A stretch of DNA of 64,000 nucleotides from Acidobacteriota bacterium (GTDB taxonomy: Bacteria > Acidobacteriota > UBA890 > WLXD01). Of this stretch, positions 51,311 through 59,314 are shown in pieces (position 1 is the stretch's first letter; the number at the start of each line of letters is the position of its first letter). The translations under genes and the position numbers were made by a program. The notes under the pieces were generated by a model, which worked only from the letters and a program-made list of their open reading frames with translations, had not been told where the DNA came from and did no database searches. The stretch covers positions 32,001 to 96,000 of the forward strand of contig CAXWPH010000010.1 of NCBI GenBank assembly GCA_963666055.2. The letters are read 5' to 3'.

Positions 51311-51385
51311 TCGCGTTCAACTCGGCCGGGTTATCGAATCGTCGCTACAAATCATAGGGTACCGAGCAATCACTCAACTCACAGA

Positions 51386-51541
51386 ATCGCCTTGTGTCAC
51401 CCTTCGGGCGATAGGGGGGGGGGTGTGCGCATGCTGTGTCGTTCGTCGTCGACGATGGGGGAACCATCGCCTCCTCCTTTCTCCCCGCCTCCACCTCCCA
51501 AGAGCCTGTCGCCAGGCCCGCTTCACTTCCACCCCGGCCTG
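51386..51541 (+). mobile_element. MITE copy 3 (diverged right half only)
   Basis: CCCTTCGGGCGATAGGG...CCATCGCCTCCTCC...CCTGTCGCCAGGCCCG..CACTTCCACCCCGGCCTG followed by CTAG. Confidence 0.8.
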
Positions 51542-51554
51542 CTAGCTGTGCGGC

Positions 51555-53837: not shown

Positions 53838-54311
53838 TCAGTCGTCGCGCACCCAATCGAAACTCGTACGGCATGTCACACAGTAGTATTGCGCCAGGCA
53901 GCCGTAGATCGAGACCGGCTCGGTATCCGCGCTGCCGCAAAAGACGCATGCCACCGTCGGCATGGCGGCGCGGGGAACTACCGGCTGGCGGCGGCGTCCA
54001 CGCCGGTTCGGCAACTCGATCAGCTTACCGCCGGGGCCGACGCCCATCGAACGCGCGTGAGCTCCGGTGAGCATGTGTGCGTGGGCGAGCTCATCCTGGA
54101 TGATCGCCATCGCCGAGATCATGCTGTTGACGGACGGCGCCTTGCGAGCCGCGTAGTAGTAGGCGGGCGCGCTCAGCGGCTCGGTATCGCCCGACACGGT
54201 GACAATGTGGCGCAGCTCGCGCTTGTACTCCTCGGTCATCTCGCTGACCGACTCGATCAGGCCGCCTGCCTGAACCGTCTGTCGAAGAAGCAGATCGGCG
54301 TCGGTGCTCAA
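53838..54311 (-). pseudogene. Deletion fusion of a PaaA-like di-iron subunit N-terminus and a PaaD-like zinc ribbon
   Basis: IESVSEMTEEYK..DTE..KAPS..AIIQDELAHAH joined to CVFCGSADTE..YG..C..YYCVTCRTSFDWV. Confidence 0.7.
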
Positions 54312-54475
54312 AGATACCTTCGGCCGCGATTAGGGGGCGTAGAGTGGCGAGGGGACCGCTGGCCCGGCCCTCAGAATCTACCTTAGAAGGCGCCCGAGAG
54401 GCAGACAAGTTGGGTGACAGCCGCCGATCTCACGCGACCTGCCGAGACCGGCCCCGCGGGCCAATGGTCCACTAG

Positions 54476-54646
54476 CAGGCCGTGGTGAAAGTGTGGTGGG
54501 TCTGGCGACAGGGTCTTGCGAAGTGCAGGCAAGGAGAGAGGAGGAGGCGATGGATACCCCATCGTTGACGAGGAACGACGCAGCATACGCGCGCAACCCC
54601 CTATCGCCCGAAGGGTTACGGCCCACCACACTTCCACCACGGCCTG
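54476..54646 (-). mobile_element. MITE copy 4 (171 bp, inverted, about 100-bp internal deletion)
   Basis: Same terminal IRs; CTAG at 54472-54475 and 54647-54650; one internal hairpin arm missing. Confidence 0.9.
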
Positions 54647-54874
54647 CTAGCGCGCCACCTCGCGATGGGTCGACGAGGGCCCCGGTACGTCCCGACGCAG
54701 ACGCTCTTCGAGCCGCTGGCCGCAGTCTACGCAAACGAGACAGTGGGCCAGAATGGCCACCGCATGGCCGCTCGCCAGCGTCCCGCGCACGTATTGGCGT
54801 AGCTCGATCTCGGCCGGGTGCAACTCGCCCCCAGCACGCAACCTGAGATCGGGGCTGCCTCGGTTGCCGGTCAA
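54647..54874 (-). CDS. Stand-alone zf-HC2 (ZAS) microprotein 2, 75 aa
   Basis: TTG start overlaps the upstream TGA (TTGA); HPAEIELRQYVRGTL..AHCLVCVDC. Confidence 0.6.
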   Translation of the reverse strand: MTGNRGSPDLRLRAGGELHPAEIELRQYVRGTLASGHAVAILAHCLVCVDCGQRLEERLRRDVPGPSSTHREVAR

Positions 54875-55089
54875 TGCGTCGTGCCTGAGGCTGCGTACAC
54901 CTCGCCAAGGCCGACGCTCGGCACGGCCAGCCCGGCAGCCGCTCGCAGCCACAGTAGCGCCCGTGCCTGGCTGCCGCAGGTGTCGCAAACAAGGCAGTGG
55001 ATGTGCAGCAGGTACGCTTCCTCGCGAGCGAGCGATCCGCTCACGAACGCAGCGATATCCAATGCGTCGGGGTGGATCGGGCGATTCAT
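54871..55089 (-). CDS. Stand-alone zf-HC2 (ZAS) microprotein 1, 72 aa
   Basis: GAGAGGA RBS; MNRPIHPDALDIAAFVSGSL..HIHCLVCDTC. Confidence 0.7.
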   Translation of the reverse strand: MNRPIHPDALDIAAFVSGSLAREEAYLLHIHCLVCDTCGSQARALLWLRAAAGLAVPSVGLGEVYAASGTTH

Positions 55090-55239
55090 CAGGGACGTCC
55101 TCTCGATCCAGACCCGCGTCGAGCCAGTCGGACCTGGAAACCGCGTGCGCAGCCACCTGAGCGGCCGCGCACGCGATGGGTCCACAGCGAGTGACCTGTG
55201 GCAGATCCAGCGCAGCATCCGTGGTCAGCACCGCCGAGC

Positions 55240-55817
55240 CGGCGCCTGGCGCTGTCATGGCAGAGCGTGCCCAGGTGTGCACAACTGCCTGATCAGCGTC
55301 GTTCAACACGCCGTTCCAGGCGGCAATGCCGCGGGTCACGGGATCGATACCCAGGGTGCTTGGATACGCAGACAAGCCGAGGAGCGGCAGCACCGCCGGA
55401 TCGACCAGCCGTACCGGCAGGTCGAGGTCATGCGTCGCGAGAAATTCGCGCGTCTCGCGGTCACCGCTGACCGACAGCACATAGATCTCGGGCGCTCGGG
55501 CGCCGAGCTCGGCAACCCTTGCTGCCAAGCTTCGCCATTCCGGCATGTTCTGCTCGCAGAAGGGGCATGTAAGTGCTCAGCACGAACAGCATCAACGGCC
55601 GGTCACGGTCGCTTACCTGCAGCGCGACCTCGTCTCCGGCGAGCGTCCGACCGGGTATGTCGACCGGCGCCGTAACCGGACCGTCGAGTCGCGACGCCTG
55701 TCCGTGTGTAACGTAGTTGTGTTGCACCATCTGGCCCAGCCAGGCGGTCCCGGCAACCAGCGCCAGAACGAACCCAACCTCGGCGATCTTGGCAACCCTG
55801 GACATCGACATCGTCAA
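55240..55817 (-). pseudogene. Membrane-anchored thioredoxin/TlpA-like redoxin (CPFC), +1 frameshift near 55571
   Basis: N-terminal TM segment and GRTLAG..PLMLFVLST in ORF 55461..55817; removing one T gives TCPFCEQNMPEW..GLSAYPSTL..WNGVL. The 3' end is uncertain because no in-frame stop occurs before 54647. Confidence 0.75.
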
Positions 55818-56051
55818 CTAGAGCAGTGCGCAGGTGCTCGAGCCGCCGCCGCCCTCGACGCAGGTCCAAACACACTTACACCCTCGTTTGCGGTATGCCC
55901 CACATTGCTCACAGTCGTTGGCGCACTCTGAGGCGCACGAGCTAGAGTCATGCAAGGCTTCGGCTTGTTCGGCCTGAAACGACAGACCGAAGACCAAGAG
56001 AACAGCCCAGCTGATCAGCAAGACCTTCTTCCAATTGATTGAGCTTCGCAC
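55818..56051 (-). CDS. Secreted 8-cysteine peptide precursor (77 aa)
   Basis: GGAGGA RBS then GTG; Sec-type signal ending AEA; predicted mature peptide LHDSSSCASECANDCEQCGAYRKRGCKCVWTCVEGGGGSSTCALL. Confidence 0.8.
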   Translation of the reverse strand: MRSSINWKKVLLISWAVLLVFGLSFQAEQAEALHDSSSCASECANDCEQCGAYRKRGCKCVWTCVEGGGGSSTCALL

Positions 56052-56101
56052 TGTGCTCCTCCAGGAACTGAGTGACGGGTACCTGTCACAGCGTTCCTGG
56101 G

Positions 56102-56117
56102 GCAAAGTGCATGCCAG
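56102..56117 (-). promoter_or_regulatory. Sigma54 (-24/-12) promoter
   Basis: Minus strand CTGGCATGCACTTTGC = TGGCAY-N5-TTGC with GG-N10-GC spacing, 50 bp upstream of the peptide gene. Confidence 0.8.
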
Positions 56118-56270
56118 CGCCCCATCAAAGCTGGGCGGCCCGGTAAGGCTCGCCTCATCAACGGCTTACGGGCAATCGCCCGGACACCGTCGGGGGGCGA
56201 TCCGGCCCGAGATAACGACGGGCCGCCAGTGGCGCGGGCGTCTGCGCCAGCCGGCCGGCAGGCGCCGGTC

Positions 56271-57128
56271 CTAGTCCAGTTCGAGCAGGAGTTGGCGGAC
56301 GGCTGTCTGTACGAGATCGAGGTCGGATTCCAGAGCGAGATCGGTCGCACCTACCGTGGCCGCTTGGCGCAGGAGCTGTCGGGCTGCGCCGGACCGACCA
56401 GCCTCGAGATGGAGCCGCGCGAGGTAGTAGGCGGTGGTGCGACCGGCCGAGTCCCAATCGGTACGCCCAGGATCGCCTAGTGCCGACAGATGGGTCTCCA
56501 GCGCCTGCCGGGCATCCGGCAGCCGGCTGCCCTCGAAAAACAGCGCCAAGCCGAGCAGGTACGTCCCGGCAGGGTGGTAAGAATCCCCGAACCGATCCAG
56601 GTAACCCGCCGCCTTGCCATAGTCACCACCGGCCAGGGCGCCCACCCCCGCCTGCACAGAAGACAACGTATCCGCGGCCTCGCTGCCCGCCGCGGCCGGG
56701 ACCTCGAGGCCGCTGAGCTGACCCTCGACCAGTGCGATCAGGTTGATGATCTCTACGTCCGCTGCCGTCAGCGCGGCAAACCCGCCCGCGCCGGGCAGCG
56801 AGTCAATCGATCGGTCCGGCGACGCCACCACGTCGCCGTTGTCGACTACCCCCCTCGGTCCAGCGCCCACGCCGAGGCCGACGAGCCAGGCCGACGCACC
56901 GACGAGCAACACGACGCCAGCAGCTGCAGCGACCCATCGAGAGGCGTACCAGGGAACCGACGCCCGCACCGGAGCGGCGCCGCGCAAGAGAATGATGGCG
57001 GCCAGCTGATCGCCGCAATCGCGGCAGGCGAAGCAGTGTTTCCGCACTTCCTCGGCGCGCGCCTCGCTCAGACAGCCCCGAACGTAGGTCACCATGTCCA
57101 ACGGATCCGCGTGCACAATCACCGTCAT
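56271..57128 (-). CDS. Zinc-finger (zf-HC2) transmembrane anti-sigma factor with a helical/TPR-like C-terminal domain
   Basis: HADPLDMVTYVRGCL..KHCFACRDC, TM segment WVAAAAGVVLLVG, TPR-like YLLGLALF and YYLARLHL; ATGA overlap with the sigma gene. Confidence 0.8.
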   Translation of the reverse strand: MTVIVHADPLDMVTYVRGCLSEARAEEVRKHCFACRDCGDQLAAIILLRGAAPVRASVPWYASRWVAAAAGVVLLVGASAWLVGLGVGAGPRGVVDNGDVVASPDRSIDSLPGAGGFAALTAADVEIINLIALVEGQLSGLEVPAAAGSEAADTLSSVQAGVGALAGGDYGKAAGYLDRFGDSYHPAGTYLLGLALFFEGSRLPDARQALETHLSALGDPGRTDWDSAGRTTAYYLARLHLEAGRSGAARQLLRQAATVGATDLALESDLDLVQTAVRQLLLELD

Positions 57129-57685
57129 GTCTCCCAGCCTTCGCCGGACTCCGTTTCCATGCGACGCCCGATCTGCAGCAATGCTGCTTGTAGCCGACTG
57201 TGCACCGTGCTGATCGGAGCTGACTGGATCGCCGCTACCTCGCGTAGCTTCATCGGCGGATCACGCAATACCAACAACTCGAGCACCTCGCGATGAACCG
57301 GCTCCAAGTCGCCTATTAGTCGTAGCGCCACCTCGACAAGATGCCGGCGGGTGCGGGATTCCTCTTCACGAAGCAACGTGCGCAGTGGATCGGAAGAGAT
57401 TTCCTCGCCCGGCACCGGCAGCGGTACCTCGTCGAGCGGTAACAGCCGCCGCCGTTGCTGGAATATCTGCAGAGCCGCCGTGCGAACCGCAGTAAGCACG
57501 TAGTTGTGCGCGTCTTGTTCGCTGCCGAACTTCGGCCGCGCGCGAACCGTGCGAGCGACGGCTTCCTGAACTACCTCCTCGGCGTCCGTCACATTACCCA
57601 TGAGGGACAACGCGTACCCTCTCCAACGATGAAACCGGGCGCGCCACGCTTTTTCGATGTAGCCGTAGGAAGCTGGTTGAGACAC
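57125..57685 (-). CDS. ECF RNA polymerase sigma factor
   Basis: Region 2 DAEEVVQEA..YVLTAVR; region 4 REVLEL..LREVA..ISTVHSRL; AGGAGG upstream of GTG 57685. Confidence 0.88.
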   Translation of the reverse strand: MSQPASYGYIEKAWRARFHRWRGYALSLMGNVTDAEEVVQEAVARTVRARPKFGSEQDAHNYVLTAVRTAALQIFQQRRRLLPLDEVPLPVPGEEISSDPLRTLLREEESRTRRHLVEVALRLIGDLEPVHREVLELLVLRDPPMKLREVAAIQSAPISTVHSRLQAALLQIGRRMETESGEGWET

Positions 57686-57900
57686 AGGCCTGCGATCCTC
57701 CTGGCGCTCGCCGGCACCGACGAGGTAACCATCCTGGTATGGCGGCCGCGACGGCGTCAATGGGTGGCCCGGAAAACCCCAGACGCCTGAGAGCAGATGC
57801 AAAAAACTTCTACAAATACGAGACTCGACAGCCGTACACCTGGTGATTCGACGGGCTCCGCCAGGTACGATCCGTACGGGGGCAGAACTTCGGACGGCTA

Positions 57901-58370
57901 GTGCGACGTACCACAGCTCAGCCTCGGCCGGCTCGGCACAACGAAAGCCGCTTGCTCGGTGGCAGCGATGCGATGTGTCGGGTCCGCGATCAAATCGAGG
58001 TCGCCGCCCAATATACGGAGCCGGCGCTCGTACTCGGCGAGACGGGCGTCGGTAAGGAGCTGGTGGCGCGGCGAATTCACCGTCGTAGCTCCAGATCGCT
58101 CGCCGAGCCAGAGATCGTGAATTGCGCCGGGCTGAGCCCGGACGTGCTTGCCTCGGAGCTGTTCGGTCACCGCCGTGGCGCGTTCACCGGCGCGGATCGC
58201 GATCGCGCCGGCCGCATCAGGGCCGCCGACGGCTCGACCTTGATCCTGGATGAAATCAGCGCAGCGCCCCCGTCACTTCAGGCCACCGTGTTGCGCGCGG
58301 TGGAATACGGCGAGGTCCAGCCAGTCGGATCCGATTCCGTCTTCCAAGTCGACGTGCGATTCGTCTGGTC
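57901..58370 (+). pseudogene. Sigma54 enhancer-binding protein (AAA+ only, no N-terminal sensor), C-terminally truncated
   Basis: GETGVGKE, VNCA, SELFGHRRGAFTGA, LILDEI, VDVRFV, after which similarity is lost (no ATN, R-finger or HTH). Confidence 0.88.
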
Positions 58371-58415
58371 AAGTACCGGATACAGGCGCCCGCCCGCGGA
58401 CGCGCCGCCCGCTAG

Positions 58416-58686
58416 CAGGCCGTGGCAGAAGTGTGGCGGGCCTGGTTACGACGAGTTGGGGCCAGATGGAAGGCGGCCTGACACTGGCGATGCCCTAGCC
58501 ATCGTCGAGGAAGGCCAACGCCACAGATGGCCCCAAATCGTCGTAACCCTTCGGGCGATAGGGGGTTGCGCGCATATGCTACGTCGTTCCTCGTCAACGA
58601 TGGGGTATCCATCGCCTCCTCCTCTCTCCTTGCCTCCGCCCCGCAAGACCCGGCCGCCAGGCCCGCCACACTTCCGCCACGGCCTG
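58416..58686 (+). mobile_element. MITE copy 5 (271 bp, CTAG target duplication)
   Basis: Same internal sequence as copies 1 and 2; CTAG at 58412-58415 and 58687-58690. Confidence 0.92.
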
Positions 58687-58831
58687 CTAGGGGCAATCGC
58701 CCCGCTGGCGAAGGGATCCAGCCAAGGATCTCGGAAAAACGGCAGCAACCAGCTTCCTCCTAGCGAAAGCTGTGTTTTCCGGGTGGTTCTCTGTCGAGCG
58801 AAGTATCCAAACTGCAACGAGCGGAGCAATC

Positions 58832-59314
58832 ATGCAGGTCTCGTCAGAGGGTGGACGACCGTCGGGACGCGAGGTGGCGGAGCTTGCACGTGTGCACATA
58901 GAGCGCCACTACGCATCGGCTGTCGGATGCGGCACTACCAGCATCGCGACACTGCTGGGAGTCTCCTCGTCGCTGCTGTGCCATCGATATCGCGCTGCCT
59001 ACGGGGTGACGATCGGCCAGCACGTTCGTAGGCTGCGCATCGGCAAGGCGCGTGAGTTGCTGAGCTCGCGATCTGGCCAGCTGATCAAGGAAGTCGCAGC
59101 CGACGTGGGCTACTGTCGGCAGTCATACCGTACGTTCCTTAACGCCTTCCGGGCGGAAACCGGTATGCCGCCGAGCCGTTACCAGCGCCAGGCGCTCGCC
59201 CCGATTCAGGCCACACCGATCGAGGTAGAGGTGCCGCAGCAGCGCCCGGATCAAGCTCGCTCCGCAAACCTGACGCACCGCCTCACACCAGCATCGACGC
59301 CCCGATTCAGGTAG
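58832..59314 (+). CDS. Stand-alone AraC-family HTH regulator
   Basis: IATLLGVSSSLL..LRIGKARELL..IKEVAADVGY..FRAETGMPPSRY; no sensor domain. Confidence 0.85.
   Translation: MQVSSEGGRPSGREVAELARVHIERHYASAVGCGTTSIATLLGVSSSLLCHRYRAAYGVTIGQHVRRLRIGKARELLSSRSGQLIKEVAADVGYCRQSYRTFLNAFRAETGMPPSRYQRQALAPIQATPIEVEVPQQRPDQARSANLTHRLTPASTPRFR

Follow-up and report, generated by a model that had tools for sequence, protein, structure and literature searches.

The window analysed here is a stretch of 64,000 nucleotides from an Acidobacteriota bacterium (assembly GCA_963666055.2, contig CAXWPH010000010.1), and its positions 54647-59314 carry a gene cassette for an extracytoplasmic function (ECF) sigma factor, an anti-sigma factor and a small, probably exported peptide with eight cysteines (8-Cys). 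Comparison of related loci shows that the core of the cassette consists of ECF, anti-sigma and peptide, and that the redoxin encoded after the peptide is one of several domains in an exchangeable slot. The anti-sigma joins a zinc-binding anti-sigma (ZAS) domain, a transmembrane (TM) helix and periplasmic tetratricopeptide repeats (TPRs). Our favoured reading, put forward tentatively, is that the secreted miniprotein acts as a periplasmic co-regulator of this membrane switch, of which the window holds a broken copy. We infer all signalling roles of the cassette from sequence.

Conservation of the sigma, anti-sigma and peptide genes

Seven gene profiles were mapped on 43 loci, 25 of which contain the peptide. 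The anti-sigma gene precedes the peptide gene, in the same orientation, in 24 of these 25 loci, with the two directly adjacent in 21; the remaining locus ends at a contig edge. The ECF gene is present in 21. In sister-family loci such as L029, L031 and L055-L058 the anti-sigma stop is overlapped or immediately followed by the peptide start. Direct coupling of the two genes, with no sigma54 layer, is the usual arrangement in this family. Among the five copies from the genus of the window, the peptide core (53% identity; ratio of nonsynonymous to synonymous substitution rates, dN/dS, 0.42) and the periplasmic part of the anti-sigma (50%; 0.39) are the two fastest-changing parts, which fits a co-varying pair without being proof of one. 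The ZAS domain, peptide signal, redoxin and activator retain 76-86% identity and the ECF 78-93%, the dN/dS row of the latter having been dropped as invalid owing to an internal stop in the G003 copy. It is because the constant neighbour of the peptide is the anti-sigma, because the two are coupled in the sister family, and because these parts change fastest that we favour a co-regulator. Prediction of a complex between the anti-sigma periplasmic part and the peptide core scored 0.00 in two runs, a result that is evidence in neither direction given the uncertain fold of the partner.

The full order, with the activator opposite ECF, anti-sigma, peptide, redoxin and ZAS microproteins, is complete in seven of the 11 genomes of the window's family (G000, the window genome, to G004, G006 and G007); in G008, G009 and G010 the cassette continues up to where the contig stops, and G005 yielded none. 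Two metagenome loci of one sequence type (L102 and L103) show the same order. Across the class, the peptide profile matches 16 of 26 genomes and nine of the 12 high-quality ones. A phylum-wide search of 401 genomes, in which 14 candidates per genome were scored and absence means not found in the genomes searched, gave 12 matches: ten inside the class and two marginal ones outside it (G224, E 9e-4; G394, E 7e-4), with no cassette genes alongside. No paralogous cassette was found elsewhere in the window genome.

An initial annotation of the window had located every part of the cassette correctly, and its expectation that the genes co-occur in a conserved order with a conserved -24/-12 box is borne out by the family genomes. 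It had also regarded the redoxin as the dedicated partner of the peptide, a view we abandon: a redoxin lies directly downstream of the peptide in only 11 of the 25 loci and is missing from the slot in 14. The activator and sigma54 layer, likewise taken as part of a putative module of peptide secretion, folding and sensing, is present in the 13 peptide loci with an activator without being universal. The ZAS microproteins, among the mapped loci, were found only in the window's family, and the AraC-type protein assigned to the same circuit was found only in the window's genus, in G007 (as a fragment) and in G008.

Three further features of these loci deserve mention. The G003 genome has a second copy (L025:9541-10768) made up of anti-sigma, sigma54 box and peptide, with no ECF, activator or redoxin match nearby. 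A conserved Cys/His-rich protein of 82-93 amino acids, without a Pfam match, adjoins the ECF in three sister-family loci (L056:1485-1736, L029:11205-11453 and L055:4231-4512). In G011, other small Cys-rich open reading frames (ORFs) with signal peptides stand divergent from ECF/anti-sigma/peptide cassettes (L060:4828-7428 and L061:12078-14853), accompanied by six-bladed propellers and DsbA- or TlpA-like genes; they may be members of the regulon.

The peptide family and the anchored slot

The peptide profile retrieved 47 proteins at E ≤0.001 from 1.84 billion representatives; alignment A5 omits P0011 and two large proteins (P0043 and P0047). The core of the window peptide is spaced C-x3-C-x3-C-x2-C-x7-C-x-C-x3-C-x9-C, and the 61 aligned members of the family follow C-x3-C-x3-C-x2-6-C-x7-C-x-C-x3-C-x8-9-C, with C1, C3, C4 and C7 invariant. 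A basic N-region, a hydrophobic core and an AxA motif at most 16 residues before C1, judged by hydropathy and motif, are found in 48 of the 61. Cysteine pairs and charges were counted on 58 sequences, three of the 61 rows not having parsed: C5 and C8 are both present in 49, both lost in six, and one is lost in three (one of these a parse shift; kin are not independent). This paired loss points to a C5-C8 disulfide. With dN/dS below 1 in the signal (0.13) as well as the core among the five genus copies, the peptide is, by this sequence measure, a real, fast-changing gene, and its product is predicted to be secreted and disulfide-bonded.

AlphaFold2 models the peptide as one helix and three strands (pLDDT 83). 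None of the 61 members matched a Pfam family above cut-off, two giving weak matches to Myticin-prepro (E 2.5e-4) and Defensin_like (E 0.005); neither of two peptides matched NCBIfam. A Foldseek search with the model gave no match at E 0.001, the best VIA-align Z among 48,161 chains was a weak 3.4, a profile search of PDB sequences reached E 0.09 at best, and the ESM Atlas offered, as leads only, solely Acidobacteriota clusters at 0.83-0.85. The absence of a structural match does not show a new fold; judged by these searches, the peptide is a new family with neither a Pfam family nor a solved relative. The designed miniprotein gHEEE_02 (PDB 5W9F) likewise has one helix and three strands in ~41-44 residues, but it is synthetic and the match is weak, with no kinship shown (Z 3.1, root-mean-square deviation 2.7 A over 37 residues, 8% identity).

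The signal peptide, the four predicted disulfides, the fast-changing core and the two weak Pfam matches would also be expected if the miniprotein were an output, i.e. a defensin-like effector that, after maturation by an anchored enzyme, is released to act as an antimicrobial or on a host, with the sigma factors only timing its production. We consider this unlikely, though it deserves serious weighing. Defensins are cationic, and 42 of the 58 cores are net negative, with five neutral, eleven positive and a median of -3. In defensins of the cysteine-stabilized alpha-beta (CSab) type, the CxxxC of the helix is bonded to the CxC of a strand. The C5-C8 covariation argues against such bonding and misfits a CSab motif using C5-x-C6. 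A mytilin-like CSab fold, our first idea, was set aside in view of cysteine covariation, the helix and three strands of the AlphaFold2 model, and the weakness of the structural matches.

The gene after the peptide bears on the same question. It starts with a common anchor, WL[GA]-x4-[HQ]N, in 15 of the 25 loci. Attached to this anchor is a TlpA-like domain in ten of these loci and a DUF5128 propeller in three; one locus has a glutaminyl cyclase there, and one has nothing that was recognised as a domain. Over 32 residues, the cyclase and propeller versions of the anchor are 59% identical. An anchor profile run on 26 genomes gave 16 matches, 15 at peptide loci (14 of them in the seed) and one also behind a peptide tail. 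The cyclase gene (L030:6443-7291, G022) is complete (PF05096, E 1e-89), lies flush against the peptide gene and encodes a redoxin-type anchor; the N-terminus of its product recurs in two database proteins. Redoxin, cyclase and propeller domains in this position are what a matured effector might call for. In G011 the cassette stands divergent from further genes for Cys-rich secreted peptides, which come with propellers and redoxins, and this is consistent with the effector too. However, the loci listed share no conserved gene for immunity or transport, and the constant neighbour of the peptide is the anti-sigma and no enzyme.

The model of the intact redoxin from G001 folds like ResA/StoA/TlpA (Foldseek E 2e-9; ResA/StoA E 5e-9 to 8e-9). 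The features of TlpA/ResA proteins, namely an anchor, a thioredoxin fold with N-terminal hairpin, CxxC and a cis-Pro loop, are found in intact relatives, the window copy being frameshifted. C82, C85 and P150 (the cis-Pro position) are invariant in 16 redoxins, as are H31, N32 and H36 after the anchor helix. Proteins of the ResA/TlpA family mostly reduce their substrates, which together with the invariant H31, N32 and H36 would suit a third role for the miniprotein: a periplasmic metal or redox buffer whose thiols the TlpA-like enzyme keeps reduced for Cu/Zn or oxidants. The model for such a buffer is the bufferins encoded by buf1/buf2 of Caulobacter near SigF-NrsF, and eight cysteines, a Sec signal and an adjoining ECF/anti-sigma pair are common ground between the two, as far as the part of PMC11626156 consulted describes them; sites of the HHCC type react with oxidants according to a portion of PMC6432622. 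Yet bufferins need an MNIO enzyme and, by the same part of PMC11626156, the cassette differs in lacking an MNIO or DUF2063 partner, in its 8-Cys spacing, in its ZAS-TPR anti-sigma and in a TlpA-like redoxin instead of DoxX. As the initial annotation had surmised, MNIO (DUF692, PF05114) was not found in the window genome (95.7% complete) or five relatives, a positive control being found in Caulobacter. Nor was there any sign of a bufferin precursor of the DUF2282 or BUF_6/12Cys type: none of the 61 peptide members matched DUF2282 in Pfam at E 0.01, and neither of two peptides matched NCBIfam. The paired C5/C8 loss points to structural disulfides, no metal-efflux genes are conserved in the loci listed, and 14 of 25 loci have no redoxin in the slot. 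A buffer free of MNIO chemistry therefore seems improbable to us.

Proposed regulatory wiring and related systems

All 13 activator-bearing loci have a sigma54 box 55-71 bp ahead of the gene that opens the peptide unit; this gene is the peptide itself in nine and a propeller gene preceding it in four. Among the 12 others, of which several are short contigs and for which 120 bp were searched, one has a box. In all nine family-f1 peptide loci, and likewise in metagenome locus L102, the box stands 55-67 bp from the peptide. The genome contains the pattern 107 times, or ~3e-4 per 30-nt window, so that its recurrent placement is more than chance. The sigma70-like motif facing the ECF gene was found in ten of ten family-f1 ECF upstream regions of this type and has three matches in the genome, while the ACTTC motif lies at -100 to -113 in seven of 11 family-f1 activator loci, a variant standing further up in two more.

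The Walker A motif of the window activator lies at residue 46, and the protein therefore has no sensor domain. Activators of the relatives (325-378 amino acids) have Walker A within the first 50 residues; ten of 12 keep GAFTGA or GAYTGA, sensor II and the helix-turn-helix (HTH), nine match all motifs and one more fails only the arginine finger (R-finger) pattern used. Walker A reads GESGGGK in G001 and GESGVGK in metagenome copy L101. The activator scores 220 bits against NCBIfam PspF, below the cut-off of 443. PspF is a sensor-less sigma54 activator of AAA+ and HTH only; the cassette activator shares this build, with a length of 325-346 amino acids, and GAFTGA, but is tied to an ECF cassette and has no pspA-like gene in the loci listed. 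The window genome also encodes rpoN and one gene of the DsbD/CcdA family.

PspA inhibits PspF in trans, and the microproteins might by analogy inhibit the sensor-less activator, or another ECF, instead of the cognate ECF. They do sit behind the activator's own sigma54 promoter, and they were found only in the family where a divergent sensor-less activator is the rule. On the other hand, no microprotein accompanies the activator in any of the five sister-family loci that have one, and ZAS1 is a clear paralogue of the sigma-binding domain at the anti-sigma N-terminus (38% identity, E 6e-7), for which reasons we regard such inhibition as very unlikely. The ligands H6, H31, C35 and C38 of the anti-sigma are invariant in 16 of 16 microproteins, the ZAS motif is at least 90% conserved in 27 anti-sigmas, and dN/dS among the genus copies is 0.18 for ZAS1 and 0.29 for ZAS2. 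The G001 copy of ZAS2 matches the ChrR-family model TIGR02451 at E 7e-5, below cut-off. The H-x24-H-x3-C-x2-C arrangement of the ChrR/RslA zinc domain recurs in the anti-sigma and in both microproteins, although, unlike ChrR as presented in the part of PMC6432622 consulted, the latter are ZAS alone, in two proteins of 72-75 amino acids behind a sigma54 promoter and without a cupin domain. By this analogy, the HHCC domain would bind zinc and hold the ECF. The cassette anti-sigmas are 250-300 amino acids long and end ~100-130 residues after the first TPR, their family profile matches consensus TPR structures at E 3e-30, and no CHAT domain was matched in Pfam in those examined.

In the mechanism we propose, the ECF and anti-sigma genes are coupled behind the sigma70-like motif and the HHCC zinc domain, by what is known of its family, would tether the ECF to the membrane. 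A signal from the envelope, acting on the TPR domain, may free the ECF, which would then likely transcribe the divergent activator; as this protein has no sensor domain, its synthesis is probably enough to switch it on. The activator would fire the sigma54 promoter, visible as a footprint, of the peptide, the anchored redoxin, ZAS1 and ZAS2. The peptide is predicted to exit by Sec, to be cut after AxA and to fold as a helix on three strands with four disulfides, including C5-C8, which the TlpA-like domain likely reduces or reshuffles. Miniprotein and anchor may then act on the anti-sigma, while the soluble ZAS proteins would likely rebind the ECF as delayed negative feedback. In the window's family, we infer, ECF, activator and sigma54 form a feedback loop.

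Several observations weigh against a co-regulator. The maturation-type domains of the slot (redoxin, glutaminyl cyclase, propeller) also fit a released effector. No peptide adjoins the ECF/anti-sigma pair in at least seven related loci (L065-L067, L092, L094, L095 and L097), so that this type of anti-sigma can stand without one; in the anti-sigma tree L065-L067 form one clade, and its many open forks and long branches give no order of events. Lesions in four of the five genus copies (G000, G002, G003 and G004) imply that the cassette is dispensable there. The proposed ECF promoter of the activator is a conserved -35-like element only, with no clear -10. Finally, every locus comes from one class, and the counts are thus not independent.

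Known systems provide parallels for the co-regulator arrangement. DdvS-DdvA of Myxococcus xanthus pairs an ECF with an anti-sigma that crosses the membrane once, between a cytoplasmic ZAS and periplasmic TPRs, and DdvA controls CBASS/CRISPR genes; in the part of PMC11506125 consulted, however, DdvA is a protein of ~970 amino acids with a CHAT domain and a CHCC site, whereas the cassette anti-sigma is shorter, has HHCC, lacks CHAT and is followed by an 8-Cys miniprotein. In CnrH-CnrY-CnrX of Cupriavidus metallidurans, ECF, anti-sigma and an extracytoplasmic third partner are encoded together. The likeness is one of design; CnrX itself is a membrane-anchored helical Ni/Co sensor, the system has no sigma54 layer, and CnrY, unlike the cassette anti-sigma, is not described as ZAS-TPR in the section of PMC6851896 consulted. 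That the miniprotein is to the anti-sigma what CnrX is to CnrY serves us as a working model, one that may well fall either way.

No published description of the cassette was found in a search that left subscription journals largely outside, in agreement with the earlier impression that the architecture is unfamiliar. The part of the ECF reclassification (PMC7826278) searched holds no ECF group with this context; the rest of its supplement may affect how novel the cassette is. The combination of ECF, anti-sigma and periplasmic partner is a known design. What seems to be new to the literature is the miniprotein family, the slot with its exchangeable domains on a common anchor, and the sigma54/ZAS layer. 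The signals of most ZAS-TM anti-sigmas are unknown. In 24 of 25 peptide loci a candidate partner is encoded beside the anti-sigma, so that a ligand-receptor test could be made with two small proteins. If the wiring is true, an ECF that drives a sensor-less activator and, through sigma54, its own soluble anti-sigmas would be a circuit not found in print. This significance is limited by the decay in the genus and by a narrow range that, in the genomes searched, comprises one class. A bolder extension, which we rate as distinctly improbable, would make 8-Cys miniproteins a new class of diffusible lineage-specific signals read by TPR anti-sigmas, with the anchor bringing exchangeable maturation domains, and with the ECF-activator-sigma54 cascade and soluble zinc anti-sigma decoys making a pulse.

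The window locus and its decay

The features of the locus are collected in Table 1. The IHF-like site fits eight of nine positions of the IHF consensus.

Table 1. Features of the cassette in the window
Feature	Position	Strand	Description
ZAS2 microprotein	54647-54874	minus	75 aa, H-x24-H-x3-C-x2-C, no TM helix; TTG start overlaps ZAS1 stop
ZAS1 microprotein	54871-55089	minus	72 aa, ZAS only
Redoxin (TlpA/ResA-like, CPFC, membrane-anchored)	55196-55811	minus	broken copy: one-base insertion, stop lost
Membrane anchor WL[GA]-x4-[HQ]N	55689-55796	minus	N-terminal to redoxin, in frame despite damage
8-Cys peptide precursor	55818-56051	minus	77 aa: 32-aa signal-like part ending AEA and 45-aa core
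Sigma54 -24/-12 box	56102-56116	minus	65 bp ahead of peptide start
IHF-like site	56156-56168	minus	~52 bp upstream of sigma54 box; position common to five genus copies
Anti-sigma gene	56271-57128	minus	HHCC ZAS, one TM helix, ~three periplasmic TPRs, no CHAT
ECF sigma gene	57125-57685	minus	186 aa, GTG start, Sigma70_r2 E 2e-7; stop overlaps anti-sigma start
Sigma70-like promoter motif TTGAC[GT]-N18-[CA]A[GC]GAT	57731-57760	minus	faces ECF gene
A-rich ACTTC motif	57801-57810	plus	~100 bp ahead of activator; possible ECF -35 element
Sigma54 activator (bacterial enhancer-binding protein) relic	57901-58415	plus	PF00158 E 6e-43, GAFTGA, Walker A at residue 46
AraC-type HTH protein	58832-59314	plus	160 aa, HTH_18 E 3e-17, no sensor; accessory, outside core

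The copy had been called partly decayed. The decay is real but goes further than that wording suggests: one inserted base near 55571 shifts the redoxin frame immediately ahead of CPFC, and CAG stands in place of its stop at 55196-55198. The activator has lost 493 bp at 58364/58365, between VDVRF and the final HTH codons, and with them its R-finger, sensor II and HTH; it thereby lacks the full motif set of its family. Because the window copy is broken, function must be read from relatives, and in G001 all cassette frames are open.

An assembly artefact as the source of these lesions was rejected on the basis of public contigs. Contigs of runs X1 and X2 span 54621-58481, including the activator junction, without difference or gap, and the redoxin frameshift is present in contigs of all four runs, with X4 (from another study) and X6 covering it unchanged; X1 may be the source sample, and contigs lose rare variants. 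The lesions of the genus differ between genomes: G002 is damaged in the redoxin tail and AraC, G003 has a stop at ECF codon 10, and G004 has an ECF frameshift and a deletion (L018:10739-11716) that joins the activator in frame to the AraC tail, independently of the deletion in the window.

A repeat resembling miniature inverted-repeat transposable elements (~190-290 bp, terminal inverted repeats of ~35 bp) lies at 51345-51546, 54465-54657 and 58407-58693 of the window, with ends that fall on the TAG stops of ZAS2 and the activator relic; it gives 186 BLAST matches in the genome, 91 of them of at least 250 nt. The repeat was ruled out as the cause of the activator loss, since it lies at the gene end and the damage is a separate deletion. 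Beyond ZAS2, a single ORF at 53838-54311 (minus strand) fuses the start of PaaA to the PaaD zinc ribbon and represents a collapsed phenylacetate operon, at the place of which G003 and G004 carry ~2.3 kb extra.

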